UHGV virus genome: UHGV-0267296
DNA length: 37,199 nt
From: a virus
Direction: 5' to 3' (one strand)
Shown: positions 1 to 37,199 of the stretch, piece after piece
Layout of the letters: the number at the start of each line of letters is the position of its first letter
How positions within the stretch are numbered: the stretch's first letter is position 1
Notes under the pieces: model-generated
What the model saw: only the letters and a program-made list of their open reading frames with translations
Told to the model about the DNA's origin: nothing
Databases searched by the model: none
Program-made: the position numbers and the translations under genes

Positions 1-1
1 C

Positions 2-139
2 GTGGGTGTACGGTGCGGATGCTTCTACGGGACGCTTGCACAGTTCCGGGATAAGATCCGGGAGACACATGGAGAAACAAAGAAGGCACAAGAATATTTA
101 ATGTTAGCGGACTTAATGAAACTTAGATTTGAAAAATAG
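2..139 (+). CDS. C-terminal fragment of hexapeptide-repeat protein (continuation of ORF 36721..37199 if the sequence is circular)
   Basis: Frame 2 is open from base 2 to TAG at 137-139. The first bases (cgtgggtgtacgg) resemble the 18-bp repeat unit of the ORF at the right end. Joining 37199 to 1 keeps the frame open (..FFRLKDG-G-VGVRCGCFYGTLAQF..EK*). No start codon at the left end. Confidence 0.4.
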   Translation: MGVRCGCFYGTLAQFRDKIRETHGETKKAQEYLMLADLMKLRFEK

Positions 140-186
140 CAAAATACTTTAAATGATGAAAGAAGAACTCTGTAAAAGTTTACAGA

Positions 187-247
187 ACAAAAGAGCGCCC
201 ATAAATGAGGCGGCAACCTCTGGGCGCATAGTTAAAAGATCAACTTT
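187..247. repeat. Direct repeat R1 (~58 bp) with nested hairpin GCGCCCA-taaat-GAGG-cggcaa-CCTC-TGGGCGC; second copy at 36640..36697
   Basis: aaaagagcgcccataaatgaggcggcaacctctgggcgcatagttaaaagatca is repeated with 3 mismatches at 36643-36697. Here the outer 7-bp stem is perfect; in R2 it is mutated. Confidence 0.7.
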
Positions 248-279
248 ATTTTAGACGAAAAAGAGGGATTTGTAAAGAA

Positions 280-639
280 ATGAAAACTGTAAAGGTAACA
301 ACTGACAATAAAGTGTCCATTATTGATGTGGATTTCTCTGATTTCAAGAGCATTCAGCAAGCAATTGGTGGTTCTTTTGAGACGGTCCATACTCAACTCA
401 TGGCGGATTATTTCAAAAATCCGTCCGTGATTATGCTAGTCGATGAAGAGGGGCTTGTTAAAGGACTTTCGGAGAATGCATTAGGGTGCGCATTGTATGG
501 AACGGCAAGGCATGGTTATCCTATTGTTGGGGACTTGATTTTTGGTATTGTGGTGGGAGAAGACATTGTCGGTCCGGAAAATCCAGAAGCAATGATAGAG
601 AGGCTGATTGGTACATTTATCGGATTAAAAAGGGTATGA
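280..639 (+). CDS. hypothetical phage protein
   Basis: 119-aa ORF with an RBS-like gagggatttgtaaagaa upstream; first gene of the + strand early block, tightly followed by DUF1351-like gene. Confidence 0.6.
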   Translation: MKTVKVTTDNKVSIIDVDFSDFKSIQQAIGGSFETVHTQLMADYFKNPSVIMLVDEEGLVKGLSENALGCALYGTARHGYPIVGDLIFGIVVGEDIVGPENPEAMIERLIGTFIGLKRV

Positions 640-656
640 AGTGAGAGGAGATTAAT

Positions 657-1616
657 ATGAACGAGTTGACATTAAATGTGAAGCAGAATCCAGGGGTTAT
701 CGAGTTGAATTTTGATGAGATCGAAAAAGCTCTGGATGCGAAACTGGCGGAGTATAAAGGTGCGGTATTTACCGAGGAAAGCAAGAGCATCGCAAAATCA
801 GAGGTAGCCAACCTCAGAAAGCTGAAAAAGGACTTTGAAGATGCGCGGAAGGGCGTAAAGAAAGAATGGATGAAACCCTATGAGGACTTCGAGGCGAAGA
901 TGAAGAACTTGACTGAGAAGATTGATGAACCCATCTGCCTGATTGATTCTCAGCTGAAGGACTTTGAACGGAAGAGAAGAGAGGAACGGCGTGAGAAGAT
1001 CAAGGAAATCTATCAGGAAATCATTGGTGACATGGAAGAGTACTGTGACCTTGGAAGAATTTACGACACAAAATGGGAGAATGCCACTACAACCATGAGA
1101 TCTATCAGGGAGAGCATAGCTACTGCTGTAGAGAGTGCCAGAATTGCAGTAAGCACTATTTCCGGGATGCAGTCAGATGCTGTGGAAAAAGCGCTTGAGA
1201 TTTATAAGGATTCTCAGGATATGGCTAAGGCAGTTGCCTACATAAACAATTATGAACAGCAGAAAGCTGAGATCATGCGCAGGGAAGAGGAGCGCAGACG
1301 TCAAGAGGAAGAAAGGAGGCGTCTTGCTGAGGAAAAACGGATCCGTGTAGCAGAAAGAGAAGCTATTGAGCGAGAAGCGAGGATCCGGGAGCAGGCGCGT
1401 CAGGAAGCAGAAGCAAGAGAATCCCAGGCCGCAAGACAGGAAGCGGCAGTTGCCCCGCTTGAGACCGAAAAGTCTGGTGGTGATGATGTGATGCCGTTTG
1501 TGCAGCCGGACACCCGGACTGTGTTTTATCATGTGGTGGCATCCGATGAAGATATCCAGGCTATTGATATGGCACTGGATAGCATTGGAGTTTATTACGA
1601 ACGGAGGGACGGATAA
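657..1616 (+). CDS. DUF1351-like phage protein (recombination-module accessory) with Arg/Glu-rich coiled-coil
   Basis: N-terminal sequence pattern typical of the siphovirus DUF1351 family that sits directly upstream of ERF/RecT genes. RBS gagaggag upstream of the start. ER-rich repeat EERRRQEEERRRLAEEKR. Confidence 0.6.
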   Translation: MNELTLNVKQNPGVIELNFDEIEKALDAKLAEYKGAVFTEESKSIAKSEVANLRKLKKDFEDARKGVKKEWMKPYEDFEAKMKNLTEKIDEPICLIDSQLKDFERKRREERREKIKEIYQEIIGDMEEYCDLGRIYDTKWENATTTMRSIRESIATAVESARIAVSTISGMQSDAVEKALEIYKDSQDMAKAVAYINNYEQQKAEIMRREEERRRQEEERRRLAEEKRIRVAEREAIEREARIREQARQEAEARESQAARQEAAVAPLETEKSGGDDVMPFVQPDTRTVFYHVVASDEDIQAIDMALDSIGVYYERRDG

Positions 1617-2416
1617 TGCAGGAAGGACAGGCAATGCTTCCAGGAGCACCGAAGATTTACGCGGCTATTGCAGGTGTGATCAATGACATCGGCGTGGTGT
1701 CCAAGGATAAGGTTAATAAGCAGCAGGGCTTTAAGTACAGGAGTGTGGACGACGTTTATAGCGTCCTGAATCCCGCTCTGGCAAAGAACAAAGTATTTAT
1801 TCTTCCGGAGATTTTGGACGAGACCCGGGAGATCGGAACGAGCAAAAGCGGAGGCAGGGTCACTTCTGTCATTCTTAAAATGAAATATACGGTATACGCG
1901 GAAGATGGATCCCATGTTGAGACCGTCCTCAAAGGTGAGGCTATGGATACAGGGGATAAGGCTATTAACAAAGCCATGGCGATCGCATATAAGTATCTGT
2001 GCTTCCAGCTCTTCTGCATTCCGGTTGAGGATATGGCGGATCCGGATGCGGAGATCCATGACATGGATGGGAAGACGACCCAGGAAAAGAATGCTGGAAA
2101 AGGTAAGACATCAGCACCCGCTGCAAAGAAGCAAGAATCGGCAAAAGCTCAGCCGGCCGAAAATAAAGAGGGCAATCCGGAGCAGAAGAGAGGTGCTGCG
2201 CAGGAAAGCGAAGACAGGAAGGTAACTGAGGTGATGGTGAATACGATCCGCGCTGAGCAGAAGCGGACCGGTGTGTCGGATAAAATGATCCTTGATCGGT
2301 TGCATTCAAAGGCAAAGAGCATCGAAGAAATGACTGTAGAGGAATTTAAGCAAGCCATGAAGATTTTTGAAGTAACAAAGGATTTAAAGCGGGAGGCATC
2401 AGATGAGCATAAATAG
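1616..2416 (+). CDS. ERF-family single-strand annealing protein
   Basis: Motif block KAINKAMAIAYKYLCFQLF and overall layout match ERF (essential recombination function) proteins; sits between DUF1351 and SSB. Low-complexity K/E/A-rich C-terminus. Confidence 0.7.
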   Translation: MQEGQAMLPGAPKIYAAIAGVINDIGVVSKDKVNKQQGFKYRSVDDVYSVLNPALAKNKVFILPEILDETREIGTSKSGGRVTSVILKMKYTVYAEDGSHVETVLKGEAMDTGDKAINKAMAIAYKYLCFQLFCIPVEDMADPDAEIHDMDGKTTQEKNAGKGKTSAPAAKKQESAKAQPAENKEGNPEQKRGAAQESEDRKVTEVMVNTIRAEQKRTGVSDKMILDRLHSKAKSIEEMTVEEFKQAMKIFEVTKDLKREASDEHK

Positions 2417-2837
2417 TGTGAATTTAACAGGCCGTCTCACCAGGGATCCGGATGTGCGGTACACGGATGGCGGGACAAGCATTGCGCGGTTTACCCTTGC
2501 GGTAGACCGCCGCTTTAAACAGGACGGCGGACCAACGGCAGACTTCCCCAGCTGTGTCGCTTTTGGAAGGACAGCGGAATTTATTGAGCGGTATTTCCGC
2601 CAGGGCATGAAGCTGGAGCTGACTGGCAGGATTCAGACTGGATCTTATACAAACAAGGACGGTGTAAAAGTATATACAACGGATGTGATCGCGGAGCAGG
2701 TCGGATTCGGGGAGAGCAAGAGTTCGTCGCAGGATTGTGGAGCCCATATGGAGTATGGCGGAGGCTTCGGACAAGAAGATGGAGACGGATTTATGAATAT
2801 CCCAGACGGGATTGACGAAAAACTGCCGTTTAATTGA
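2403..2837 (+). CDS. ssb: single-stranded DNA-binding protein
   Basis: Canonical SSB OB-fold N-terminus (VNLTGRLTRDPDVRYTDGGTSIARFTLAVDR..) and acidic C-terminal tail ending DGIDEKLPFN (DDIPF-like). Confidence 0.9.
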   Translation: MSINSVNLTGRLTRDPDVRYTDGGTSIARFTLAVDRRFKQDGGPTADFPSCVAFGRTAEFIERYFRQGMKLELTGRIQTGSYTNKDGVKVYTTDVIAEQVGFGESKSSSQDCGAHMEYGGGFGQEDGDGFMNIPDGIDEKLPFN

Positions 2838-2847
2838 GGTGATGTGA

Positions 2848-3348
2848 ATGATTATACAGATTGACAGCAGGGAAAAGGCGCGGGCGATCACGAAGATCGT
2901 GGCGGAGTTTGACCGACAGAATATTACGCATCCGGTATCAAAGCTGATGGTCGGGGATTACATGAACTATGATAATCCCCGGCTGATTATCGACAGAAAG
3001 CAGAACCTGTCAGAGCTGTGCAATAACGTCTGCAACGATCATGACCGGTTCCGAAGGGAGCTGATCCTTGCACAGAAAAATGAGATCCAGCTAGTGATCC
3101 TGGTGGAGCACGGGAAGGGGATTACCTGCCTGCAGGACGTGGCATGGTGGGATAATCCCCGCAGATGGAAGAGACAGCGAAATCGGGTCACTGGAAAGTG
3201 GGAGGATGTCGAAACAAAGGCTATGACAGGCGATGTATTGTATAAAATTCTCTGTACTCAGGAACAGAAGTATGGTTGCCGATTCCTTTTCTGTGATAAG
3301 GACGAGACGGGAAAAGAGATTATTCGGATTTTGATGGATGGACTATGA
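2848..3348 (+). CDS. putative ERCC4/Mus81-type nuclease (possible junction-resolving enzyme)
   Basis: Sequence GDYMNYDNPRLIIDRKQNLSELCNNVCND fits the GD..ERK...D ERCC4 nuclease signature (DRK variant). Position next to SSB/ERF supports a recombination role. Motif-level call only. Confidence 0.35.
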   Translation: MIIQIDSREKARAITKIVAEFDRQNITHPVSKLMVGDYMNYDNPRLIIDRKQNLSELCNNVCNDHDRFRRELILAQKNEIQLVILVEHGKGITCLQDVAWWDNPRRWKRQRNRVTGKWEDVETKAMTGDVLYKILCTQEQKYGCRFLFCDKDETGKEIIRILMDGL

Positions 3349-3830
3349 ACAGTGAAGAAATTAAGAAAACTTATAGCATGCGAGATATTTTAGGACGGTA
3401 TGGGATGCAACCGAACAGAGCTGGCTTCATCTGCTGCCCATTCCATAAAGAGAAAACCGCATCCATGAAGATCTATCAGGACAGCTATTATTGCTTCGGA
3501 TGTGGCGCACATGGGGATATTTTTGACTTTGTAAGCCAGATGGAAGATATCACATTCCGGGAAGCATTTTTCAATCTGGGCGGGACATACGAGCAGAAAA
3601 AAGAGACGTTCGGCGAACGAATGTCGCGGTATCACGCCCGGAAAGAGTGGGAGATGCAGCAAAGGCAGAAAGAGAATCTGGAAGAGCGGCGGAAAGTCAA
3701 TAGCGAGCTGATCGACATATATCGAGACTGTCTGATACTTACAGTGCCGCTTTCTGATCTCTGGACGGAAAGCTATAACAAGCTGCAGTATCAACTGTAT
3801 TTACACGAAGTTTTAAATGAACCGAGGTGA
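3345..3830 (+). CDS. CHC2 zinc-finger (DnaG-type primase zinc-binding domain) protein
   Basis: CCPFHKEKTASMKIY..YYCFGCGAHGDIFDFV is the classic CHC2 primase zinc finger. Only 161 aa, so no TOPRIM domain in this ORF. Confidence 0.75.
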   Translation: MNSEEIKKTYSMRDILGRYGMQPNRAGFICCPFHKEKTASMKIYQDSYYCFGCGAHGDIFDFVSQMEDITFREAFFNLGGTYEQKKETFGERMSRYHARKEWEMQQRQKENLEERRKVNSELIDIYRDCLILTVPLSDLWTESYNKLQYQLYLHEVLNEPR

Positions 3831-5698
3831 TAAGGAGCGATATGAAACCTTTAAACAGTTACGATAAAAAAGGAATCCTGGCAGAGGAAGTCTTTGTGGA
3901 AATCTTTGAGCAGGAGGATGCTATAAGACGGGCACAGATGCTCCTTTCCTTTCAGGATCGTGCAAAGGAGCTCGGAGTAAAAGGGCAGTTTGACACAATG
4001 GTGAAAGCATTCGAAAAAGCTGAGAAGGAAACTCAGCAGAAACAGCGGCAGAGTCAGACACTCATTGAAAACTGGACGAATTTTACTGGGAAGTACGACT
4101 CTATGAAGTGCGGATCCTGGCTTGCCGCAGACAATGGTATACGGACATTCAATAAGGATTATTCCAACGAGGTGATCGTCTGTTACCATCCAATCATGCC
4201 GATCGGAAGGATGCGGAACCTGGAGACAGGGGAAGAACAGATCCGGCTGGCGTATAAACGTAATCACCGCTGGACAGAGATTGCCGTCCCAAAAGATATT
4301 ATATCTTCGGCAAGCAAGATTGTCTCGTTGTCCAAGCTCGGTGTAGCAGTCACATCCGAAAATGCAAAATTGTTGGTGAAATATCTGTCGGACGTAGAAA
4401 ATATGAACGATGACGAGATCCCAATTCAAAGATCGAGCGCAAAACTAGGCTGGATCGGAGATGGTTTTCTGCCGTATGATACGGAGATTATTTTTGATGG
4501 GGATATGGCATTCGGACAAGTATACGAGAGTATCCGAGAGCATGGAAGCTGGCAGGAGTGGCTGGAGCATGTGAAGGCATTACGCAGGACAGGGCGGTTG
4601 GAGATCAAATTTTCTCTAGCAGCATCCTTTGCAAGTATTCTAGTCAACCGTTTAGGTGCTCTTCCGTTTATTGTTGATCTTTGGGGCGAGACGGAAGGGG
4701 GAAAATCTGTCTCCATGATGCTTGCGGCTTCGATTTGGGCGAATCCGGACAATAACCAGTACATAGGCGATTTCAAGACAACGGACACACAGTTGGAGAT
4801 TCGCGCGGACTTACTGAACCATCTTCCTTTGATGCTGGATGATACCAGCAAGACTAGCAGTCGGATCAGAGATAATTTCGAGGGCGTCGTGTATGATTTG
4901 TGTTCTGGGAAGGGCAAGAGTCGATCCAATAAAGAACTTGGAATCCGCCGGGAGAATCGATGGAAGAATACGATCCTTACAAACGGGGAGCGCCCATTGA
5001 CGTCCTATGTGTCGCAGGGTGGCGCGATTAACCGTATTCTTGAGATTGAATGTGGTGAAAAGGTATATCAGGACCCACAATATACAGCGGAGCTGCTCAA
5101 AAAGAACTATGGATTTGCCGGGAAACGGTTTGTGCAGGTCATAAAGAAGATGGGCGCGGAAGAACTCAGGGAGATACAGCAAAAGCTTCAAAAGGAGCTA
5201 TTCAGCGTTGATAAAATGCAGAAACAGAGCATAGCCATGTCGGTCCTGTTGCTGGCTGATCGGATAGCAACGGATCATATCTTTTATGATGGAGAATATA
5301 TCAGTGTACAGGAAGCTGAAAGCGTCCTTGTGGATAAGAGTGAGGTGTCAGAGCATGAGCGTTGTTACCACTATCTGCTTGACAAGATTAACATGAACCG
5401 GCAGCGTTTTGATGCCGCGGCAACGACGGAGCAATGGGGGATTATTAGCGAAGGATATGCAATCATGTACCCTCAGGCTGTGAAGGAGCTGTGCCGGCAG
5501 GGAGATTATTCCTACAAGGCATTCCTCAACTGGGCGGATAAGCAGGGAATTATCCAGACAGACGGCAAGAACCAGACAAAGCTGAAGAAGATCGACGGCA
5601 AGCCGGTTCGCTGCGTATTCTTGCAGCTGAACGAATTCCAAGACAAGGACGGATTCGAGCCGACGGATGTATCGCAGGAAGAGCTCCCGTTTAAATAA
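3827..5698 (+). CDS. primase/helicase-associated ATPase (DUF927/VirE/P4 primase C-terminal-like)
   Basis: 623 aa with Walker A-like DLWGETEGGKSVS and Walker B-like LPLMLDDTSK. Translationally coupled to the CHC2 ORF; followed by an iteron/palindrome region. Confidence 0.55.
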   Translation: MIRSDMKPLNSYDKKGILAEEVFVEIFEQEDAIRRAQMLLSFQDRAKELGVKGQFDTMVKAFEKAEKETQQKQRQSQTLIENWTNFTGKYDSMKCGSWLAADNGIRTFNKDYSNEVIVCYHPIMPIGRMRNLETGEEQIRLAYKRNHRWTEIAVPKDIISSASKIVSLSKLGVAVTSENAKLLVKYLSDVENMNDDEIPIQRSSAKLGWIGDGFLPYDTEIIFDGDMAFGQVYESIREHGSWQEWLEHVKALRRTGRLEIKFSLAASFASILVNRLGALPFIVDLWGETEGGKSVSMMLAASIWANPDNNQYIGDFKTTDTQLEIRADLLNHLPLMLDDTSKTSSRIRDNFEGVVYDLCSGKGKSRSNKELGIRRENRWKNTILTNGERPLTSYVSQGGAINRILEIECGEKVYQDPQYTAELLKKNYGFAGKRFVQVIKKMGAEELREIQQKLQKELFSVDKMQKQSIAMSVLLLADRIATDHIFYDGEYISVQEAESVLVDKSEVSEHERCYHYLLDKINMNRQRFDAAATTEQWGIISEGYAIMYPQAVKELCRQGDYSYKAFLNWADKQGIIQTDGKNQTKLKKIDGKPVRCVFLQLNEFQDKDGFEPTDVSQEELPFK

Positions 5699-5915
5699 CG
5701 GTAACAAAGTAACAGGGGTAACATTCGAAAACGCCTATATATATCTGAAATATATGTATATATATCGTTCCGCACCCTATAAGGGAAAAGAGGTGTTACT
5801 AATGTTACCGCTCGGAAAAGTGCTGATAAACCTAGTAAATACGCGGGTTTGCGTGGTAACAAATGCATTTGTTACTTTTTGAAATATCGTGTTACAAAAC
5901 AATGTTCTTGTTACT
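5699..5915. repeat. putative replication origin: GTAACA/TGTTAC iterons (>=8), AT-rich core, 20-bp perfect palindrome
   Basis: ggtaacaaagtaacaggggtaaca at 5699-5724; tatatatatctgaaatatatgtatatatat at 5736-5765; gttactaatgttac at 5795-5808; palindrome gtaacaaatgcatttgttac at 5856-5875; gttacaaaacaatgttcttgttac at 5891-5914. Confidence 0.45.
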
Positions 5916-5928
5916 TTTGGAGGTATTT

Positions 5929-6153
5929 ATGGATAAAAAAGTGAAAGACCTGCATGAGAAGATCACAGATGTGTATAACACCATGTGGGTAGCGTATAAA
6001 AAATATCTTGAAGATGGGTATGTGCGATATATCAATGATGCCGCCTCTGATTTAGAAAAGAAATATCAAGACGATCCAGTGATCATGCAGTTTATTTGGT
6101 ACCAAAAAGCATCATGGTCGGGACCAGTAGAGCAGATTAAGGAGTGGTCGTGA
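5929..6153 (+). CDS. hypothetical early protein (74 aa)
   Basis: ATG at 5929 preceded by ggaggtatttat. The ORF track begins at 5863, but that upstream part runs through the iteron region. Confidence 0.5.
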   Translation: MDKKVKDLHEKITDVYNTMWVAYKKYLEDGYVRYINDAASDLEKKYQDDPVIMQFIWYQKASWSGPVEQIKEWS

Positions 6154-6312
6154 TGAAAAAAAGAAAGAGGATGCAAAGCAGGTAAAGGCAGACGATGCAA
6201 AGATCTGCTACCTGTGCGGTGAGCTGATTGTCGGAGATTATGAATATGTTCGTACAAAACGTCGGACAGAGATGTATTTCCACAAAGGCATGAAATGCAG
6301 AAAGGGAAAATG

Positions 6313-6519
6313 ATGGACGAGACAAGAGAAACTAAAAGAAATGTAATCCGGAGTATCCGGAAAGGCTCTGTTCAGTGGAGCGAAGAAGACCGGCTTAAAG
6401 TTGCAACATTGCTTTTAAAGGCTGGGTATGCGGTAAAACTGAACAGACAGCCGATTCCAGGAAAAGCATCCGGAAAGACGCAGCAGATGGAATATGTGAT
6501 TGAATACTGGGAGGAATAG
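6313..6519 (+). CDS. hypothetical early protein
   Basis: ATG at 6313 with RBS agaaagggaaa; 68 aa, basic. Confidence 0.45.
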   Translation: MDETRETKRNVIRSIRKGSVQWSEEDRLKVATLLLKAGYAVKLNRQPIPGKASGKTQQMEYVIEYWEE

Positions 6520-6823
6520 GCGTGATAAAGAAGAAAGGCATGAACCCAGCGTTGGCACGAATGACGCAGATCCAGAAGGACAACATGCTGATCAGCTTAG
6601 GAAGATTTATTTTCCGATCGCAGAGTCCTGGAAGCTAATTCGGGAGTTCTGCGATGCGACAGGGACGCCCGTTGAGTGCTTCAAAGTGCACGAGCGGGCG
6701 CAGGATATATATGAGAGATCAGATAAGACGCAGTTCGCCACAGAGATTGTGTCAGCTACGGTGAATCTTATAGACCGTCTCATGAGAGAGAATGGAGGTA
6801 CAGCAAAAGAATGGAGAAAGTAA
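6500..6823 (+). CDS. hypothetical protein (start uncertain)
   Basis: 107-aa ORF. Its C-terminal two-thirds look protein-like. An overlapping 37-aa ORF in another frame (GTG at 6531) has a stronger RBS (gggaggaatag), so the true 5' end is ambiguous. Confidence 0.35.
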   Translation: MNTGRNRRDKEERHEPSVGTNDADPEGQHADQLRKIYFPIAESWKLIREFCDATGTPVECFKVHERAQDIYERSDKTQFATEIVSATVNLIDRLMRENGGTAKEWRK

Positions 6824-7404
6824 CGATTGATTATAATCGTCTCTGCCTAGAGTTGGAAAAACAGGGTAAGACAAAAGCAGATTTATCTAGGGACATGACG
6901 AAGAACAAGAACTTCGTCGGCTTGATGGAAAAGAATCCGGATCAGCCAGCGGAGGTAGAACGGCTTATGTGTTTGCTGCTCGGATTGGAACAGGGGAGTC
7001 TGATCAAGCAGGAGGAAGCAACTGGATCACAGGGAGAAATCAAGATACTGGAAAACCTGCACAAAGAAATGCGAGAAATCCATCAGGCTATTATAGAGTA
7101 CGGGGAGCTTATCGAGAAAATTTGGAGTAAAGTACATGCAAATACCCTTCAGCTTGAGAAAGTAAAGGAAGATGTTAAGGAATGTGCACAGGTGTTAAAG
7201 ATGACCGATTACGACAAAGCGGTTCGTTTTTTGAAAGAGACATTGGCAGGTGGTCGGATCGATGGCGCGGAGGTATTGAGGATGGCAGATGCTACAGGGA
7301 TCAAGAGAGCGGATCTCAATAAAGCAAAGAGAGATATCGGTGTAGACACAGCACAGACAGGATACGGTAAAAATCAAAAGACATGGTGGTTTTTGTCTGA
7401 GTAA
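6811..7404 (+). CDS. hypothetical protein, possible N-terminal HTH
   Basis: 197-aa ORF overlapping the previous stop. N-terminus (TKADLSRDMTKNKNFVGLME) is HTH-like. Confidence 0.5.
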   Translation: MEKVTIDYNRLCLELEKQGKTKADLSRDMTKNKNFVGLMEKNPDQPAEVERLMCLLLGLEQGSLIKQEEATGSQGEIKILENLHKEMREIHQAIIEYGELIEKIWSKVHANTLQLEKVKEDVKECAQVLKMTDYDKAVRFLKETLAGGRIDGAEVLRMADATGIKRADLNKAKRDIGVDTAQTGYGKNQKTWWFLSE

Positions 7405-7453
7405 AAAAAGAAAGGAGCCAGCCTCCGGCCGGGGCAATGGTATACCGGGCTTC

Positions 7454-8845: not shown

Positions 8846-8877
8846 GTCATTCACGAGTTGATCGAAAGGAGAGTGGA

Positions 8878-18701: not shown

Positions 18702-18702
18702 T

Positions 18703-28320: not shown

Positions 28321-28321
28321 T

Positions 28322-28975: not shown

Positions 28976-29002
28976 GAGATATGACCACATAGAAATCAGA
29001 GC

Positions 29003-29026
29003 AAGACCGTAACAGGTCTTATTTTT
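29003..29026 (+). terminator. rho-independent terminator ending the structural operon
   Basis: aagacc-gtaaca-ggtctt followed by attttt. Confidence 0.7.
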
Positions 29027-29055
29027 ATGTATAAATTAAAAGAAGGGAGACTTAT

Positions 29056-29591: not shown

Positions 29592-29644
29592 TACGTAAAG
29601 ATACGTGGAAAAAGATTGACATACGTAATGATACGTGATATAAT
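29591..29644 (+). promoter_or_regulatory. consensus sigma70 promoter (TTGACA-17-TATAAT) embedded in two 18-bp direct repeats atacgtaa[a/t]gatacgtg; likely HicB-autoregulated operator
   Basis: -35 at 29616-29621, -10 at 29639-29644; repeats at 29591-29608 and 29621-29638 (ATACGT x4). Confidence 0.6.
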
Positions 29645-29675
29645 ACAATCATGATAAGGAAAGGAGATACAAAAG

Positions 29676-29864
29676 ATGCCAATGACACCGAGAGAGATGA
29701 TAAAACATCTCAAGAAAAACGGGTTTGAGGAAATCAGTCAAAATGGTTCTCATGTAAAACTCAAGAATCAGACGACAGGGATAACAGTTATTGTTCCTTA
29801 TCACTCCAAAGCCATGAAAAAGGGGTTGGAGCAGGCAATATTAAAACAAGCGGGGCTTAAATAG
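29676..29864 (+). CDS. hicA: HicA-family toxin (mRNA interferase)
   Basis: 62 aa; REMIKHLKKNGFEEISQNGSHVKLKN..TVIVPYHSK matches the HicA/YcfA fold signature (catalytic His in GSHVK). Confidence 0.8.
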   Translation: MPMTPREMIKHLKKNGFEEISQNGSHVKLKNQTTGITVIVPYHSKAMKKGLEQAILKQAGLK

Positions 29865-29899
29865 CCCTGCGCCTGAAAAAGAAAGCGGAGGTATTACGT

Positions 29900-30298
29900 A
29901 TGGAAAAATTATTTTATCCTGCAATTTTTCACGAGGCGGAAGAAGGCGGTTTTTGGGTATCCTTTCCGGATTTACCGGAATGCTTAACAGAGGGAGATGA
30001 TATGCAGCAGGCTTATGAGATGGCAGTAGATGCGCTGGGAATCTCTCTTACAAGCAGGAAAGCAGAAGGCGAACTGATTCCAAAACCGACAGAAATAAAT
30101 AAAGTAGATGCGGAAGACGGAATTTTAGCGGTCGTAGAGTTTGATATGATGGAATATCAGAAGAAACACAATTCACGTGCAATCAAGAAGACGCTTAGTA
30201 TTCCGGAATGGCTGAACGAAGAAGCGGTTGCCAGAGGAGTTAATTTCTCACAGGTATTGCAGGAAGCACTGATGCTGAAACTAAATATAGGAAGATAG
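29900..30298 (+). CDS. hicB: HicB-family antitoxin with C-terminal ribbon-helix-helix
   Basis: N-terminus MEKLFYPAIFHEAEEGGFWVSFPDLPECLTEGDDMQQAYEMAVDAL is the HicB/UPF0150 signature; C-terminus LSIPEWLNEEAVARGVNFSQVLQEAL is an RHH DNA-binding domain. Confidence 0.8.
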   Translation: MEKLFYPAIFHEAEEGGFWVSFPDLPECLTEGDDMQQAYEMAVDALGISLTSRKAEGELIPKPTEINKVDAEDGILAVVEFDMMEYQKKHNSRAIKKTLSIPEWLNEEAVARGVNFSQVLQEALMLKLNIGR

Positions 30299-30306
30299 AA
30301 TAATTT

Positions 30307-30337
30307 AGAGAGCTTGGAGGCAGGCTCTCTTTTTTTG
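30307..30337 (+). terminator. rho-independent terminator after hicB
   Basis: agagagc-ttggaggcag-gctctct followed by ttttttt. Confidence 0.75.
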
Positions 30338-30371
30338 CGCCGGTGCAAATGCCGGAAGAAAGGAGAAGAAC

Positions 30372-31346
30372 ATGAGTATTTGTAGAGGAGTAGCAGGACT
30401 TAGAGGTGGAAATCCGAGAGGAATTTTTATTCACAACGATGCAGGATCACAAAATGCAAATGCGGCGTTTTACAGAAAATGGCTGCAAACACATCCGTTA
30501 GAAAACGGATTTGCTCACGCTTATGTAGCTAGTGACGGGATCTTGTATGCGGAAGATGATGCCTACGCAGCATGGCACTGCGGGCAGACAGACGGAAACC
30601 GGAACTATTATTCGATTGAGGTCTGTCAGAGTACGGGGGATTTGGAAATCTTTAAGAAAAATGAAGAGAATGCGTTGAAGTTGGCGGCGCAGAAGTGTAA
30701 GCAGTACGGTATCGTTCCAAGCTCGAATACAATCCGGCTGCACAAGGAGGTATTCGCGACAGCGTGCCCGCACAGATCCGTAGAGATTCACGGAGGGGAT
30801 TCCGGATGTAAGACATACTTTATTAATAAAATCCGTGAGTATATGGGAATGGACAAGCTGCCGGATGCTCCGGTTGTCAGTGGAGGCGGAAGCAGTGCAG
30901 CATCCGGTGATCCTGGCATTGTGTTTACTTATGGTGTTATGCTGACAGATGGAACAATCCTGCCCTTTGTGAATAACCTGTCTGATTTTGCAGGACTTCC
31001 GGGTCGTACAATCGCCGGTATCGCGATAAAGGTTAATAAAGGTACTGTAAAATACCGCGTGCATGTAAAGGGCAAAGGATGGTTACCTTATGTAACCGGA
31101 TGTAACTGGTCTGACGCAAACAACGGCTATGCTGGATATCCGGGAGCTGTGATCGATGCCGTAGAGGTATATTATGATACTCCGGCGGACATTGTTGCAA
31201 AATACGGTTATCAGAAAGCGCAGTATAGAGTTGCTCCGATCGGCGGTGGCTACTATCCTTGGCAGTTCGATAATGAAGTAGGAAATGGACAGGATGGATA
31301 TGCCGGATGTTTCGGCATTGCGTTTGATAAATTTCAGCTGTACTAA
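30372..31346 (+). CDS. endolysin, N-acetylmuramoyl-L-alanine amidase (Amidase_2/PGRP) with C-terminal cell-wall-binding region
   Basis: Amidase_2 motifs: IFIHNDAG, AHAYVASDGILYAEDDAYAAWHCG, SIEVCQS, TACPHRS; ~150-aa C-terminal domain; follows holin cassette. Confidence 0.85.
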   Translation: MSICRGVAGLRGGNPRGIFIHNDAGSQNANAAFYRKWLQTHPLENGFAHAYVASDGILYAEDDAYAAWHCGQTDGNRNYYSIEVCQSTGDLEIFKKNEENALKLAAQKCKQYGIVPSSNTIRLHKEVFATACPHRSVEIHGGDSGCKTYFINKIREYMGMDKLPDAPVVSGGGSSAASGDPGIVFTYGVMLTDGTILPFVNNLSDFAGLPGRTIAGIAIKVNKGTVKYRVHVKGKGWLPYVTGCNWSDANNGYAGYPGAVIDAVEVYYDTPADIVAKYGYQKAQYRVAPIGGGYYPWQFDNEVGNGQDGYAGCFGIAFDKFQLY

Positions 31347-31352
31347 AAACAT

Positions 31353-31376
31353 TCCCCGGAGTATCTGCTCCGGGGA
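31353..31376. terminator. 9-bp-stem hairpin between convergent endolysin and integrase genes (bidirectional terminator candidate)
   Basis: tccccggag-tatctg-ctccgggga; T-run on the minus-strand side (aatgttttta). Confidence 0.6.
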
Positions 31377-31531
31377 GAAATATTGTATCATCTTCATACA
31401 TTATATAAAGAAGTAACAGTTGTAGGTTTTTACGTTAAGGATACCTTATAGAGATATAAAATGATTTGTATGTTGTTACGAAAAGGTTGACCCTTTTGTT
31501 ATAACCTACAAAACTGCGAAAACCCTTGATT

Positions 31532-33013
31532 TTACTGGGATTCCGGCGCATAGTAGTAATAAACTTTCAGCTCATCTTTTGAGCGATCATATATAATCTT
31601 TTCTATCACGCTCTTTAGGATTTCATTTTTGGTTACGGGGTCCACAGAGTCAGATTCTATGATTTCATATACATTTCTTACTTTTTCCAACATAGCGATT
31701 TTAGAAGTATCAATAGTAGGTTCTGCTGGTTTTATGTCTGCAAGCTGCTTTTCCAGCATCTCTTTTTCTTCCTGAACCATGCGCTTATTTTCTTTATATT
31801 CGTCAAGTGTATCTACTCCATTACGGTACGCTTCTCTGATGCGGTCAAATTTTTCCGCATTCTTTCTTAACTGCTCCGTAATAATGACGTTTAGATCCAC
31901 AGAAGTTTCCGGCACCGGTTCAACGTGCCTGTAGATGATGTTGCCACTGTCCAGAACTTCTTTTATGGATGCAAGTACCGCCGGTTCTAACCTTAACGAG
32001 CTTACAGATGTTTTTGCAAGGCATTTTCCTTTTGAGTACCCATAGCATGTAAAATAGCAGTATGATTTTTGGTTACTTACTGTTTTGGCAATCATGGTTC
32101 TTCCGCATACAGGGCACTTCATAAGACCTGATAGCCAATGTTTGTATGTAGAGGAAGGTCTGGCGCCGGAAGGTTTGTATTCGCTTTTGTAACGGATCTG
32201 CGCTTTGTCAAATAATTCTTTAGATATAATAGCAGGTTGCTGACCATCAGAGACAATCCATTCTGATTCCGGTCGGATTTCATTTGTTTCGCTTACGGTA
32301 CGGTTCCATCGGATCATACCGCAGTAAGTTGGGTTCTGTAAGATGTATTCAATAGATCTGCGTTCAAATGGTTTATTGTGAGATGTTTTGAACCCACATG
32401 AATTTAGATAGCGTGCTATGTCGAATATTCCGGTATGTTCATTTACATATTTATCAAATATGATTTTAATTATTTCAGCTTCTTCCGGTACAATAACGGG
32501 AGGCTTTCCACGTTCTTGGATTTTATATCCAAGCGGAGGACGCGCCTGATAGCCGCCGCGTTTTGCCTTTTCTGTCATACCTCGTGTCACTTCGCCGGAA
32601 AGACGGACGGAATAGTACTCGTCCATCCATTCAATGATGCGCTCGATCAAAGAGCCGAACGGACCGTCTACAAGCGGCTCGGAAACGCTTAAAACGTCCA
32701 CATTATGCTTTTTTTTAAGAAGGGACTTATAAACGATAGATTCTTCCTGGTTTCTGGCAAAACGGCTGAATTTCCATACGATGATACAATCGACAGGATG
32801 TTTGTCTGATTTGGCAAGAGCAATCATTTTTTGAAATTCCGGACGTTTATCAGCTTTCCGACCGGAAATACCGAGCTCATAAAAGATTTGCAGGACAATC
32901 ATATCGTTCTTTTTAGCAAAGTCTTTCAACAGTTTTGCCTGCGAATCAGGAGAGAGCTCTTCTTGGCCGGATGTGGATACCCTAACATAACCATAACAAT
33001 ATTTAGTTTTCAT
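31532..33013 (-). CDS. int: large serine recombinase (phage integrase)
   Basis: N-terminal resolvase catalytic domain YGYVRVSTSGQEELSPDSQ (nucleophile Ser), recombinase domain, Cys-rich zinc-ribbon segment (CPVCGRTM..CYFTCYGYSKGKC), coiled-coil C-terminus; 493 aa. Confidence 0.9.
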   Translation of the reverse strand: MKTKYCYGYVRVSTSGQEELSPDSQAKLLKDFAKKNDMIVLQIFYELGISGRKADKRPEFQKMIALAKSDKHPVDCIIVWKFSRFARNQEESIVYKSLLKKKHNVDVLSVSEPLVDGPFGSLIERIIEWMDEYYSVRLSGEVTRGMTEKAKRGGYQARPPLGYKIQERGKPPVIVPEEAEIIKIIFDKYVNEHTGIFDIARYLNSCGFKTSHNKPFERRSIEYILQNPTYCGMIRWNRTVSETNEIRPESEWIVSDGQQPAIISKELFDKAQIRYKSEYKPSGARPSSTYKHWLSGLMKCPVCGRTMIAKTVSNQKSYCYFTCYGYSKGKCLAKTSVSSLRLEPAVLASIKEVLDSGNIIYRHVEPVPETSVDLNVIITEQLRKNAEKFDRIREAYRNGVDTLDEYKENKRMVQEEKEMLEKQLADIKPAEPTIDTSKIAMLEKVRNVYEIIESDSVDPVTKNEILKSVIEKIIYDRSKDELKVYYYYAPESQ

Positions 33014-33198
33014 GACATCACCTCGGTTGATTCATTCTATTCCTGACAGAGCAGAAAAATGAGTATAAAAATAACAGCTATCAAGAAACAAATGTTCTGA
33101 TTGCGATAGCTGACCGAAGATGATACAATATTTTCGTTGATTAGGTGTATATCTTCGGATATATTCCAGAGCCGTTCCTGTTGGCGCAGGGGCGGTTC

Positions 33199-33226
33199 TT
33201 GACATTTATGGTACATTTGCTATAAT
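33199..33226 (+). promoter_or_regulatory. near-consensus sigma70 promoter (TTGACA-16-TATAAT) driving a short + strand transcript with no ORF
   Basis: cttgacatttatggtacatttgctataatg; no + strand coding sequence until 35282. Confidence 0.5.
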
Positions 33227-33233
33227 GTACTTA

Positions 33234-33336
33234 ACAGGATAGCCGGAAGGTGACTGCACCTCACCCGCTCCGGTGCAACTTAAAAAACTATAAGAAATAG
33301 TCGTCAGCTTTGTCAGGGCAGGACGGCTATTTTTTA
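33234..33336 (+). ncRNA. candidate antisense sRNA (type I antitoxin-like) ending in T-run overlapping the 3' end of minus-strand peptide gene
   Basis: ~100 nt from predicted TSS to ctatttttt at 33327-33336; internal stems ggtgactgcacc and ccgg..ccgg; 3' end overlaps stop codon region of the 33327..33410 peptide ORF. Confidence 0.3.
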
Positions 33337-33410
33337 TGCGTATAATTCAGAATGGCTACAACCAAAAGCGCAATGCTTATGATCAAACTGAGTTCTTCAT
33401 ATGTACTCAT
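33327..33410 (-). CDS. 27-aa hydrophobic peptide, type I toxin-like (MSTYEELSLIISIALLVVAILNYTHKK)
   Basis: ATG preceded by strong SD ggagggggggtgg; single TM helix plus basic C-terminus; convergent with and overlapping the promoter-driven + strand RNA. Confidence 0.4.
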   Translation of the reverse strand: MSTYEELSLIISIALLVVAILNYTHKK

Positions 33411-33543
33411 AATTACCACCCCCCCTCCACAGGATTCTCGGAATGGGTGGAAGCTCGTCCTCCGGCTACCCTGGTAAATACATTTTCCTTCGTATATGCT
33501 CCGGCGACTTTGGGAGTGTCGGGTATATTTCGTATAACGTAAA

Positions 33544-33567
33544 AGACCCCGTATTACTACGGGGTCT
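33544..33567 (-). terminator. terminator of the minus-strand PemK/MazF-like operon
   Basis: agaccccgta-ttac-tacggggtct; on the minus strand followed by ttttac. Confidence 0.65.
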
Positions 33568-33674
33568 AAGTTGTGCAGGTAAACTGCATTGTCCTAATGT
33601 TATACACGCTAAGGTGTTTTGTTCTATAACATTATATGTTGGTATGCCCCAAAAGTCAATACTTTATACTATAA

Positions 33675-34421
33675 TTATTTACCAATATATAATTCGCAGA
33701 TTTTTTTATCTATTATATTTAAACTTTCATCGCTTAATTTTATACCTGCAAAAGCATCGGAATAATGCAAAGGTTTTGTTATTCGTATTTTGCTAATTGT
33801 TGTGATTTGAGAAACTAAGCCAATGCTTCCAGTTTTCATTAAATCAATTTCTTTTTGCACCTTATCGGCTTCCGTTGTATCTACTGTAAAAGCTATCGTT
33901 ATTTTCTCTCCGGCATACACCGGATTTGGCGATACTTTCACATCTTGAATTGAATTATTGAATTTTTGCATATACTTTTGATGGAGCTTATCATATATTT
34001 CGTTTCCCAAATCAATAGTGAATTTATTAGGTGTGGTATATTCTTTTTTAGATGAAAGAGGAAGTACGGTTAATATATCGGAATAAGGGGAGTCTTTTTT
34101 ATTTAAAACAACCGCATAATGCAATCCGCCTTCTTCATGACCAATACGAAAGCCTAGGTCAACTTGAATAATTTCACCTCTTTTGTATACTTTATTTTTT
34201 GAAGCATCAAATGTTTTTTCTTTTTTAATAAATCTACAATATGTATTGATCCAATACGAAAGCAGATTTACTTTTTTGAGATGGGAATCGTTTTCTGTTG
34301 TGCTGTCTTCAGGTGCTTTTTTAATGTGTGCTTCAAGCAGCTCATTAAGGGTTTTTATAGCTCTTTTTTTATTTCCGATGACCTCATTTTTATCGAAAAA
34401 ATATTTTTCTTTTTGTTTCAT
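33675..34421 (-). CDS. atypically long PemK/MazF-fold protein (249 aa) - toxin/abortive-infection candidate
   Basis: KRGEIIQVDLGFRIGHEEGGLHYAVVLNKKDSPYSDILTVLPLSS matches the MazF/PemK core (RGdIv.vdf..g.E..g.RPalVls). Second conserved block LVSQITTISKIRI ~70 aa later implies an insertion. ATG at 34421 with RBS gagggaag; N-terminal 90-aa extension. Confidence 0.55.
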   Translation of the reverse strand: MKQKEKYFFDKNEVIGNKKRAIKTLNELLEAHIKKAPEDSTTENDSHLKKVNLLSYWINTYCRFIKKEKTFDASKNKVYKRGEIIQVDLGFRIGHEEGGLHYAVVLNKKDSPYSDILTVLPLSSKKEYTTPNKFTIDLGNEIYDKLHQKYMQKFNNSIQDVKVSPNPVYAGEKITIAFTVDTTEADKVQKEIDLMKTGSIGLVSQITTISKIRITKPLHYSDAFAGIKLSDESLNIIDKKICELYIGK

Positions 34422-34500
34422 AGCGTTTTTACTTCCCTCTCTTTCTTTTGTCCCCTGTTCCTTTAACACCACTTTATATAATCGCCGTAGCGGTTATACC

Positions 34501-34713
34501 TTATTTATGCGCAGACATTTCGATTTTCTGTACATCTATTTTCTCAAAATCACGCTCCTTTATATGCCTAATCGCATGGTTAATTGCCTTTAACCGTTTG
34601 CTTTCACATAAATTTGCGTTTATAAAAATAGTGAATGAATTATCTTCATTCTCGGTTATTACTTCATTAACGGTCATTCCGTCCATGAAAAAAATTTGAT
34701 AATCAAAACTCAT
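34501..34713 (-). CDS. small protein upstream of MazF-like gene (candidate antitoxin), 70 aa
   Basis: Co-directional, immediately 5' of the MazF-like gene, overlaps repressor stop; acidic N-half, basic C-half (KRLKAINHAIRHIKERDFEK). Confidence 0.35.
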   Translation of the reverse strand: MSFDYQIFFMDGMTVNEVITENEDNSFTIFINANLCESKRLKAINHAIRHIKERDFEKIDVQKIEMSAHK

Positions 34714-35080
34714 TATTATCACGTTCCTTTTTCTTTAATGCCATAAGCATGTCATATGTTGTTTTCAAATCTTCCGGAGTAGCATCTTTTGCAGCATCGA
34801 ATAAGACACGCAAATCTTTGTTTTCAAATAGTTTTTGTGCCATCTCAGCGGTTTCTTCGTTTAAATAGTACTTCTCACCGCCTTCCTTTTCTTCGCCAGT
34901 ACGAATATACTCTACTGATACTCCAAACAAGTCAGCAATTTTTTGTAGTTTTGCATCTTTGGGGTTGCTTCTTCCATTCTTCCAGTCGGAGAAAGTTGAC
35001 TTGGTAATCCCAGTTTCCCTTGCAACGTCAGCGTCTTTCATGCCTTTGGCATCTCTTAACTTGCAATAAATTTCATACAT
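34703..35080 (-). CDS. CI-like repressor (XRE-family HTH plus C-terminal domain)
   Basis: ATG 35080 with SD gaggtg; HTH DADVARETGITKSTFSDWKNGRSNPKDAKLQKIADLFGVSVEYI; divergent from cro-like gene. The ORF track extends further 5' to 35176 through the operator region. Confidence 0.8.
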   Translation of the reverse strand: MYEIYCKLRDAKGMKDADVARETGITKSTFSDWKNGRSNPKDAKLQKIADLFGVSVEYIRTGEEKEGGEKYYLNEETAEMAQKLFENKDLRVLFDAAKDATPEDLKTTYDMLMALKKKERDNNEF

Positions 35081-35281
35081 AATACACCTCACAAAAAAAA
35101 TTCTGAAATCAGTACAAAAGCTATTGACAAGTTCTGATATCCGCACTATAATAAAGCTACAAAGTTCGGAAATCAAAACAGAATTGTAACTTAATTCTTT
35201 GTCAATGTATCTGGTAAATATATTGTATCTGATTTCCGAACTAAAATCAATAGGAAAGTTCGGAAATGAGGTGATTATTTA
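35081..35281. promoter_or_regulatory. divergent CI/Cro control region: consensus PR (TTGACA-17-TATAAT at 35124-35152) and repeated operator half-sites AGTTCGGAAAT
   Basis: agttcggaaatc at 35163-35174, gatttccgaact (inverted) at 35231-35242, agttcggaaatg at 35258-35269, related ttctgaaatc at 35101-35110. Confidence 0.6.
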
Positions 35282-35491
35282 ATGTATGAAAAATATGTAG
35301 AAATCAGGGATTCAAGAAAACTGACAGATTATCGTGTGTCAGAAGATACTGGAATAACTAAATCTACATTTTCTGATTGGAAGTCAGGAAGAAGTAAGCC
35401 AAAGATGGAAAAGCTCAAAATCCTCGCCGACTACTTCGGAGTATCTATTGAGTACTTCCTAGAGGAGTGTAACAGGAAAGGTGTTCGATAA
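35282..35491 (+). CDS. Cro-like XRE-family HTH regulator
   Basis: 69 aa; HTH TDYRVSEDTGITKSTFSDWKSGRSKPKMEKLKILADYFGVSIEYF, nearly the same recognition helix region as the CI-like protein. Confidence 0.75.
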   Translation: MYEKYVEIRDSRKLTDYRVSEDTGITKSTFSDWKSGRSKPKMEKLKILADYFGVSIEYFLEECNRKGVR

Positions 35492-35620
35492 ACATGACTT
35501 TGAACCAGAGGAGGAAGTGTGAAAACAAAAGAACTGCAAGGAGGGCCATTCCCTACAGTTTTTCGCCAAATTTGTTTACCCTATGTACTTTGCAGATGAT
35601 TCAGAGAAAGGAGGAAACCG

Positions 35621-35755
35621 ATGGAGATCGCTATTACGCTAGCGTGCTTTTCTACTCTTATGAATAGCGTCTCGCTAATTTGTATTTGTGTGTCGCTGTT
35701 ATTAAAAAAGAGGAATGACAATTCCGATGATAGTTCCAATAGCGGCAATTACTGA
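35621..35755 (+). CDS. 44-aa hydrophobic peptide (MEIAITLACFSTLMNSVSLICICVSLLLKKRNDNSDDSSNSGNY)
   Basis: Strong RBS agaaaggaggaaaccg before ATG; one TM helix; 3' end overlaps convergent minus-strand gene 35702..35938 by 54 bp. Confidence 0.35.
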   Translation: MEIAITLACFSTLMNSVSLICICVSLLLKKRNDNSDDSSNSGNY

Positions 35756-35938
35756 TGAAATTGTACCGATGACTAGCCACTTTTTATCTTTTGATGAAGC
35801 TTTTTCCATTTGATTTAGAAGTTTTGCTTGATCTTGTTGAACTATTTTAATCTCATTTAACAGATCAATCTGCTTTTGTGAATAGTCATTTTGCACACGT
35901 TCAAATGAAGGTGGCTCGGGAATGTTGAAAAAATCCAT
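35702..35938 (-). CDS. 78-aa coiled-coil protein with C-terminal TM anchor
   Basis: RBS aaaggagaag before ATG 35938; C-terminus WLVIGTISSVIAAIGTIIGIVIPLF. Confidence 0.45.
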   Translation of the reverse strand: MDFFNIPEPPSFERVQNDYSQKQIDLLNEIKIVQQDQAKLLNQMEKASSKDKKWLVIGTISSVIAAIGTIIGIVIPLF

Positions 35939-36059
35939 AAATAATCTTCTCCTTTCATAATTATTCCGACTGGTACTCGGTAATTAAAGTATAGGAGATT
36001 TTAAAGGACAACGCAACAAGTACAAACAGTGATTCATAAGCTTTAGAGAGGTGGTGTAA

Positions 36060-36197
36060 ATGATCATAAAAAACATTGTAGTAATTGACGGAAAAGAAGT
36101 AGAGGTTAAGGAACTGGAAGATAAAGAGGCATTTGCAGAAAGTGTTAACCAAAGGGTTCTTTTTGACAGAAACTACATAATAGAGAAAACCGCGTAA
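36060..36197 (+). CDS. small hypothetical protein (45 aa)
   Basis: RBS agagaggtggtgtaa before ATG; MIIKNIVVIDGKEVEVKELEDKEAFAESVNQRVLFDRNYIIEKTA. Confidence 0.3.
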   Translation: MIIKNIVVIDGKEVEVKELEDKEAFAESVNQRVLFDRNYIIEKTA

Positions 36198-36219
36198 GCG
36201 GTAGAAAGGAAGGACAAGC

Positions 36220-36444
36220 ATGGAAAAAATGAAATTACCGGCAGTGCCGGAGCTGGCACTGATCCCGATCGAACGGAGAAGCTTGCCGGAAGCGGATCAC
36301 AAGCAGGAGAGCCGAAAGATCCGGAGCAAAAGAAAAGAAAGAGACAGCGCTGCAAGAGGACTGATCGCGGTAACAGTCGCAAGCATGATGTTAAATGCGG
36401 TGATGGCTGTGATTATTTATATCTTGCAGGCAGGACCGATCTAA
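36220..36444 (+). CDS. hypothetical protein with C-terminal TM helix
   Basis: RBS gaaaggaaggacaagc before ATG; C-terminus LIAVTVASMMLNAVMAVIIYIL. Confidence 0.45.
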   Translation: MEKMKLPAVPELALIPIERRSLPEADHKQESRKIRSKRKERDSAARGLIAVTVASMMLNAVMAVIIYILQAGPI

Positions 36445-36460
36445 GGAGGTGAACAAAGAA

Positions 36461-36652
36461 ATGGACGAAGAGGTAAAGAAAGATGCCGAAGAAGAAATGA
36501 ACTGCATCTTAGAACTGCTTGAAGAATGGTGTCTGAAATACGATCAGGATTATGCAAACGCGGTTGTGCTTGTGAAACATAATCAGATCACATCATGGGG
36601 AAGTATAGGAAATCACGAAGACCTCGTTTGCAGAATAAAAGAGCGCCCATAA
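36461..36652 (+). CDS. acidic hypothetical protein (63 aa)
   Basis: ATG 36461 with RBS aaggaggtgaacaaaga. The ORF track begins at GTG 36449. The stop lies inside direct repeat R2. Confidence 0.45.
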   Translation: MDEEVKKDAEEEMNCILELLEEWCLKYDQDYANAVVLVKHNQITSWGSIGNHEDLVCRIKERP

Positions 36653-36697
36653 ATGAGGCGGCAACCTCTAGGACGCATAGTTAAAAAATCATTTTTA
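36640..36697. repeat. Direct repeat R2 (copy of R1 at 187..247; outer hairpin stem degraded)
   Basis: aaaagagcgcccataaatgaggcggcaacctctaggacgcatagttaaaaaatca; 55/58 identical to R1. Confidence 0.7.
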
Positions 36698-36720
36698 TTA
36701 TAACAGAAAGGGTGAAGAAA

Positions 36721-37199
36721 GTGAAGAAATTTGAATTAACAAATGAATTTATTACAAATATGTTCGGGACAAAGCTGTTCCGCATCCGTGCCCTTGTTGA
36801 GTTCGGCGATGTGGAAGCCGGAGAACTTGGCGGGTATGTGGAGAAGGAATCAAACCTTGGTCATGACGACAATGCGTGGGTGTACGACAATGCGTGGGTG
36901 TACGGCAATGCGCTGGTGTGCGGCAATGCGCGGGTGTGCGGCGATGCGCGGGTGTGCGGCAATGCGCTGGTGTGCGGCAATGCGCTGGTGTACGACAATG
37001 CGTGGGTGTACGGCAATGCGCGGGTGTGCGGCAATGCGCTGGTGTACGACAATGCGTGGGTGTACGGCAATGCGCGGGTGTGCGGCGATGCGCGGGTGTG
37101 CGGCGATGCGCGGGTGTGCGGCAATGGGGACTATGCATACGCTCACGGTTTCGGATCTGTCAACCGTACAACGACCTTCTTCCGTCTCAAAGATGGTGG
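36721..37199 (+). CDS. hexapeptide-repeat (N-A-x-V-x-G/D) protein, N-terminal part; runs off the right end and plausibly continues at 2..139
   Basis: GTG start with SD aaaggg; after a 48-aa leader, ~14 consecutive 6-aa repeats NAWVYD/NALVCG/NARVCG/DARVCG then GNGDYAYAHGFGSVNRTTTFFRLKDG; no stop before the window end. Confidence 0.6.
   Translation, partial: MKKFELTNEFITNMFGTKLFRIRALVEFGDVEAGELGGYVEKESNLGHDDNAWVYDNAWVYGNALVCGNARVCGDARVCGNALVCGNALVYDNAWVYGNARVCGNALVYDNAWVYGNARVCGDARVCGDARVCGNGDYAYAHGFGSVNRTTTFFRLKDG
36865..37126. repeat. tandem array of ~14.5 imperfect 18-bp units (consensus gacaatgcgtgggtgtac / ggcaatgcgcgggtgtgc)
   Basis: Directly visible periodicity; causes all six frames to be open locally (minus-strand ORFs 36752..37138, 36850..37146, 36861..37124 are repeat artefacts). 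Confidence 0.9.

Follow-up and report, generated by a model that had tools for sequence, protein, structure and literature searches.

Virus genome UHGV-0267296 from UHGV is a stretch of 37,199 nt, given as one strand and referred to here over its whole length as the window, which begins and ends inside the same open reading frame (ORF), a hexapeptide-repeat gene that runs off the right end and resumes at the left. The question raised by this arrangement is whether the two ends are neighbors in nature, and what form of phage DNA the assembly represents. A preliminary description had read the window as a circular or circularly permuted phage genome, and that reading is upheld: the ends are adjacent in every assembly that covers them, the window carries an intact phage attachment site (attP), and integrated relatives of the phage break at that site. 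Very probably, what the window contains is a full unit genome (37.2 kb) of a temperate phage of the siphovirus type whose host is [Ruminococcus]/Mediterraneibacter torques; the assembly represents the non-integrated form, linearized at an arbitrary position.

The two ends of the window are contiguous

The gene split by the window ends and the repeat array within it are laid out as follows.

36721..37199, plus strand: 5' part of the hexapeptide-repeat gene, 159 codons and 2 bases (479 nt), YdcK-type beta-solenoid
1..139, plus strand: 3' part of the hexapeptide-repeat gene; base 1 finishes the codon GGC and frame 2 runs to the TAG at 137-139
36870..37126, plus strand: tandem array with a period of 18 bp, 14.3 copies with 89% matches, encoding (N/D)A(W/L/R)V(Y/C)(G/D) hexapeptides

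The final full codon of the right-end ORF is 37195-37197, which leaves GG; base 1 of the window, a C, completes GGC, and the frame then stays open to its TAG. The ends do lie within one ORF whose frame is continuous across the 37199/1 junction, as had been proposed. The gene starts at the GTG at 36721, which has a better spaced Shine-Dalgarno sequence than the alternative in-frame GTG at 36712. The joined product is 205 aa in length (208 aa from the upstream GTG) and not the approximately 215 aa first estimated, and its C-terminus before the stop codon is ...THGETKKAQEYLMLADLMKLRFEK. Taken alone, the open frame across the ends is weak evidence and only suggestive: the prior for a frame match is one in three, and frame 3 at the left end is likewise open, until the TAA at 99-101. 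There is no direct terminal overlap of at least 8 nt between the window ends, and consequently circularity is not readable from the window alone.

Positions 1-39 of the window are present in 48 contigs from other samples, comprising 13 IMG/VR viral contigs and 35 human-gut metagenome contigs. A 30-mer over the junction, composed of the last 15 and the first 15 bases, is exact and internal in the 13 IMG/VR contigs, and the left-end 39-mer recovers these together with the 35 metagenome contigs. No contig that begins at base 1 of the window was found in the viral or metagenome collections. The last 73 nt of the window stand directly upstream of positions 1-39 in all of them (48 of 48, with 0-2 mismatches). 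In four contigs (L002, L121, L125 and L128), an identity of 99.3-99.5% to the window extends from within the repeat gene to a point 4.1-7.1 kb after the junction; two of these, L002 and L121, also align further upstream into the lysogeny region in separate segments, L002 reaching the integrase. The junction peptide ...FFRLKDGG/VGVRCGCFYGTLAQFRDKIRETHGE... is encoded identically in every contig examined, and in L002, L007, L012 and L013 the junction is followed by the C-terminus seen in the window. The profile phrog_20532 covers residues 114-204 of the joined protein in a single alignment that spans the join at residues 160/161. In nature the ends of the window adjoin each other, and nothing has been lost from the 37199/1 junction. 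Host genes or a differing sequence at either end would have spoken against a circular genome; as far as the other assemblies show, there is neither.

Could the circularity be an artifact of assembly, in which the ends were falsely joined through the 18-bp array or a short match at the left end, or in which bases were lost at the junction? The left end has 13-14 nt in common with the repeat unit (GCGTGGGTGTACGG), the array contains an exact internal repeat of 64 nt, its longest, at an offset of 54 nt, and 6 of the 13 related IMG/VR contigs terminate within the array, the copy number of which varies among assemblies. The left end had been called repeat-like, which is correct for that short match; however, the match is in a different reading frame, and the array proper stops at 37126, 73 nt before the window end. 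A break inside the array is ruled out by the same distance. The accompanying caution that tandem repeats are where assemblies break or collapse was apt for the array itself, although not for the junction, which lies outside it and has lost no bases. The 48 independent contigs with the same sequence over the join, four of them with more than 99% identity over the next 4-7 kb, also contradict a false join, as does a prophage of R. torques, described below, that likewise joins both end regions. An assembly artifact is already effectively refuted, and we give it almost no probability.

The copy number given for the array in the window is provisional, and the variation among assemblies may be biological or made by assembly; the complete genes in related contigs (L001-L013) have 13-28 hexapeptide units. 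An error in copy number, being a multiple of 18 nt, would leave the frame argument intact. Two alternative C-terminal tails occur among L001-L013, ...THGETKKAQEYLMLADLMKLRFEK and ...THGESAIAEEYLDLAALMEKRFRRTGNEQKTEEES, with the switch at approximately position 76 of the window, within the gene.

The protein encoded by the split gene is matched by PF18836 (YdcK beta-solenoid repeats; Pfam, 68.9 bits against a cut-off of 30), and its 5' part is also matched by phrog_7964 and phrog_5070 (PHROG). It failed the full-length YdcK equivalog test, with 76.7 bits against a cut-off of 350 for NF040481. A "distant" blastn search of the junction gene gave weak matches only, namely repeat proteins from unrelated phages and gp34 of R. 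gnavus phiRM10. In annotation, the two partial ORFs at the window ends should be merged into one gene with a 205-aa product.

An intact attachment site and the integrated relatives

The position at which the phage enters the chromosome is found approximately 6 kb from the right end of the window, next to the lysis genes.

30372..31346, plus strand: endolysin (Amidase_2), the final gene before attP, with exact copies beside host genes in eight prophage loci
31470..31512: attP, with the core TGAC at 31488-31491 within the dyad AAAAGG-TTGAC-CCTTTT
31532..33013, minus strand: large serine recombinase (integrase), 493 aa, with the Pfam domains Resolvase, Recombinase and Zn_ribbon_recom

[Ruminococcus] torques ATCC 27756 (NZ_DS264349.1) has a counterpart of the integrase gene with 99% identity. 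The prophage of that strain (L014) is 97-99.7% identical to the window over the integrase, early and replication regions, and it matches window positions 6167..195, then 36702..36630, 36459..35941, 35517..35283 and 33482..31479, with no match beyond. Since the prophage runs from 6167..195 straight into 36702 and onward, the ends of the window are neighbors in the integrated form as well.

The integrated copies also define the limits of the prophage. At the integrase-side junction, in L014, homology to the window begins at 31488, with the chromosome of ATCC 27756 adjoining it, and at the lysis-side junction, in L094, homology stops at 31491. Eight chromosomal loci (L094-L101) with an endolysin identical to that of the window match it up to 31491 and then pass into a PG_binding_1 ORF, leuS and a sialidase; in the assembly collection, about a thousand indexed blocks contain the window endolysin. 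The window itself reads straight through the crossover point at 31488-31491. Because it reads through TGAC where the integrated copies break into host DNA, the window carries an intact attP. An exact 35-mer over attP matched no viral contig, owing to a single-nucleotide polymorphism beside the core, and a 25-mer with one N found two contigs (L102 and L103), in which the uninterrupted lysis-attP-integrase arrangement is also present.

The alternative explanation, that the window was excerpted from a bacterial contig as an integrated prophage and that its frame continues across the ends by chance, draws on the fact that near-identical prophages are common in host chromosomes. Yet the phage part of those integrated copies ends at 31488-31491 and host DNA follows, whereas the window continues as attP. 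The window contains no sleC, leuS or sialidase sequence, and its ends lie in the interior of the prophage map. We consider a cut prophage to be wholly improbable. The window is the excised unit genome, and as the integrated copies begin and end at attP, it is a circular permutation, by 5,708 nt, of the prophage map, which would read 31492..37199 followed by 1..31491.

The route by which such DNA would arise can be outlined. The serine integrase would recombine attP, at the TGAC core, with a bacterial site (attB) inside a sleC-like host gene; upon induction, the prophage would excise to a circle in which attP is restored; the circle would replicate by means of the phage's own ERF, SSB and DUF927 primase-helicase module; and a terminase of the PBSX family would cut concatemers by headful, giving terminally redundant, circularly permuted virion DNA. 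Either a circle or permuted linear DNA would assemble as a circle without natural ends, and so the position of the break in the window is biologically meaningless. The window can be used as one complete, closed phage genome, the start coordinate of which has no biological meaning and the prophage map of which begins at 31492. The result also gives the host, M. torques, and the integration site.

The prophage interrupts a sleC-like gene

When the host flanks of L014 and L094 are joined in silico at TGAC, a single ORF of 438 aa results. The restored protein matches PDB entry 9h68, "spore cortex-lytic enzyme pre-pro-form," with E = 2.8e-136, and along its entire length it matches the natural, uninterrupted protein P0001 with 100% identity; the cluster of P0001 at 90% identity has 1,239 members. 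Because joining the flanks restores a natural protein exactly, the phage integrates precisely into the sleC-like gene, and the prophage splits what is predicted from these matches to be the gene of a spore cortex-lytic enzyme. Just downstream of the sleC-like gene are leuS and the gene of a large sialidase.

Packaging of the virion DNA

The sequence of the packaging genes bears on whether the virion DNA is itself permuted.

10846..14096, plus strand: packaging module, consisting of TerS (Terminase_2) at 10846-11331, TerL (PBSX family) at 11321-12607 and an SPP1-type portal at 12594-14096

TerL scores 277.9 bits against TIGR01547 (PBSX family), for which the cut-off is 105, and its closest relatives are the TerL proteins of Clostridium phage phiCp-D (63% identity) and of the defective PBSX-like phage PBP180 (62%). 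Its sole match in the PDB is Sf6 gp2, a headful terminase. A PBSX-family TerL together with Terminase_2, an SPP1-type portal and a gp7/Mu F-like protein is a combination typical of pac phages. DNA packaged by headful is circularly permuted and terminally redundant, and PBSX is a headful packager (PMC12946183). From the terminase family and the head genes, it is likely that this phage packages by headful and that its virion DNA would be permuted and terminally redundant.

The genome could instead be complete and circular as assembled while the virion DNA has fixed ends, either cohesive (cos) ends or short direct terminal repeats. Nothing in the sequence demonstrates permutation, and ligated cos ends or excised circles would also assemble as circles. 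Fixed ends are nevertheless unlikely, given a PBSX-family TerL that is 62% identical to that of the PBSX-like particle PBP180 and the Terminase_2, SPP1-type portal and gp7/Mu F-like proteins encoded beside it.

Several points weigh against the interpretation of the window as a complete genome of permuted DNA. The physical form that was sampled may have been a circle, a concatemer or permuted virion DNA, and the headful assignment is a prediction from family membership. The phage has no close relative in the deposited phage collection, a megablast search of 25 kb against deposited phages having given matches of only approximately 60-70 nt. This repeat count has no independent match, the exact joined 205-aa protein, with either V or M as first residue, being missing from a collection of 15 billion proteins, and the 64-nt repeat at the 54-nt offset means that the array may have lost or gained units in assembly, in multiples of three.

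The split gene is an accessory cassette

The hexapeptide-repeat gene lies between two copies of a direct repeat.

36626..36709, plus strand: direct repeat of approximately 83 bp, upstream copy, flanking the hexapeptide gene
178..260, plus strand: direct repeat of approximately 83 bp, downstream copy, flanking the hexapeptide gene

The two copies are 92-94% identical over their first approximately 65 nt and are in different frames. Such repeats border the hexapeptide gene not only in the window but also in L002, L004 and L013. In the ATCC 27756 prophage, which lacks this gene, there is a single copy of the repeat. The beta-solenoid gene split by the window ends, bounded by the ~83-bp direct repeats, forms an accessory cassette. 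The repeated element may be a cassette boundary, a recombination site or a terminator. A hairpin, GCGCCCA...TGGGCGC, is present in it, and consensus scans of the element found only a weak terminator-like hairpin, on the minus strand. Rfam at gathering thresholds gave no matches over the whole window, so the ~83-bp element corresponds to no known RNA family.

An invertible segment in a probable tail-fiber gene

A second variable region is located among the tail genes.

25736..26508: invertible segment of 773 bp, with 24-nt inverted repeats at 25736-25759 and 26485-26508

The segment lies in the ORF at 25242-26114, which is the next gene after those of Dit and a minor tail protein and which, from this position, probably encodes a receptor-binding or tail-fiber protein. 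Among the loci with the inner 725 bp, always at 100% identity, six have the window orientation and three the reverse, the two orientation groups being L094, L098 and L102 versus L095-L097 and L099-L101. On inversion, the last 117 aa are exchanged for an unrelated C-terminus of 120 aa, so that the protein is either 290 aa or 293 aa long. No small invertase of the Gin/Cin/Pin type was found in the genome scans, and recombinase domains are missing from the neighboring ORFs; the scans detected a single recombinase, the 493-aa integrase approximately 5 kb from the segment. A resemblance of the inversion sites to attP was rejected by eye, as they have no AAAAGG/TGAC motif in common. Our literature search found no account of sleC as a prophage target, of this phage or of the tail-fiber inversion.

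By analogy with SPbeta and skin in other spore genes, one could propose that the phage acts as a reversible switch in the sleC-like gene, such that competence for germination in a common gut Lachnospiraceae would depend on excision, and that its receptor-binding protein is diversified by intragenic inversion without an invertase of its own. The enzyme that catalyzes the inversion would then have to be the large serine integrase or one supplied by the host. We regard this combined proposal as doubtful.

Gene content and layout

Gene calls are from Pfam, PHROGs and NCBIfam scans. On the replication side there are matches to DUF3846, DUF1351, ERF, SSB, an ERCC4-type nuclease, the CHC2 primase zinc finger and the DUF927 primase-helicase, and among the head and tail genes to a Mu F-like protein (gp7/Mu F-like), a capsid protein, a tape measure protein, Dit and a minor tail protein. 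The lysogeny region contains a divergent pair of helix-turn-helix (HTH) genes.

34703..35491: divergent HTH pair, CI-like at 34703-35176 (minus strand) and Cro-like at 35282-35491 (plus strand)

The predicted layout is that of a complete temperate siphovirus, with lysogeny, replication, methylase, packaging, head, tail and lysis modules. The integrase (31532-33013) is located between the lysis module, represented by the endolysin at 30372-31346, and the CI-like (34703-35176) and Cro-like (35282-35491) genes, and in this the preliminary description was accurate, as it was in seeing no host-like genes beside the phage modules. Domain and family scans, which took in part of the small ORFs, found phage modules and no host gene block in the window.

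Putative toxin-antitoxin-like genes are present as well: a HicA/HicB pair (29676-30298) is encoded just ahead of the endolysin, and between the genes of the integrase and the CI-like repressor is that of a 265-aa minus-strand protein (33675-34472), which has MazE-like and PemK/MazF-like matches. Two DNA methyltransferases, a C5-cytosine enzyme and a D12-class N6-adenine enzyme, are encoded at 7454-8845 and 9967-10797, between the replication and packaging modules. Within the first 25 kb of the window, approximately 60-70 nt at 7400-7473 are the sole part shared with R. gnavus phages, at 89-96% identity.

Comparison with known systems

The invertible segment resembles the G segment of Mu and the C segment of P1 in being bounded by inverted repeats, in occurring in both orientations and in swapping the 3' end of a tail-fiber gene, here a probable one. 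It differs from them in having no adjacent small serine invertase and in that its two alternative ends are unrelated in sequence. The inversion repeats are presumably dissimilar to gix and hix sites.

Intervening prophages are known in spore-related genes, with SPbeta in spsM, skin in sigK and yin in yabG (PMC4191935, PMC10747680). As in SPbeta and skin of B. subtilis and yin of C. botulinum, a large serine recombinase is encoded beside the att site, and the insertion lies within a spore-related coding sequence, here that of a SleC-like protein, which would be restored by precise excision. In contrast to those elements, the one described here is a complete and apparently functional phage.

The known phages closest to this one are temperate pac-type siphoviruses of the Bacillota that have SPP1-type portals and PBSX-family terminases, its TerL being nearest to those of phiCp-D, PBP180/PBSX, Anoxybacillus A403 and Bacillus PM1. 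Their TerL proteins are 57-63% identical to that of the window; they are alike in the TerS/portal/Mu F-like head module and in a size of approximately 37 kb, and they have the same order of lysogeny, replication, packaging, head, tail and lysis genes. The window differs in that no deposited phage matches its DNA over more than approximately 70 nt, in having a gut Lachnospiraceae host, and in that permutation is here inferred.

The prophage of ATCC 27756 is far closer, with the same integration point and the high identity over the integrase, early and replication regions given above. It differs in being the integrated form, in its single ~83-bp copy without the hexapeptide gene, and in an immunity region that is partly diverged. 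Circular assembly of a temperate phage is routine. The features of specialist interest are the integration into sleC, the hypervariable beta-solenoid cassette flanked by repeats, and the tail-fiber inversion without an invertase. The finding as a whole is real but ordinary: a phage of a well-known kind that no deposited phage resembles in its DNA, with a near-identical prophage in a reference strain.

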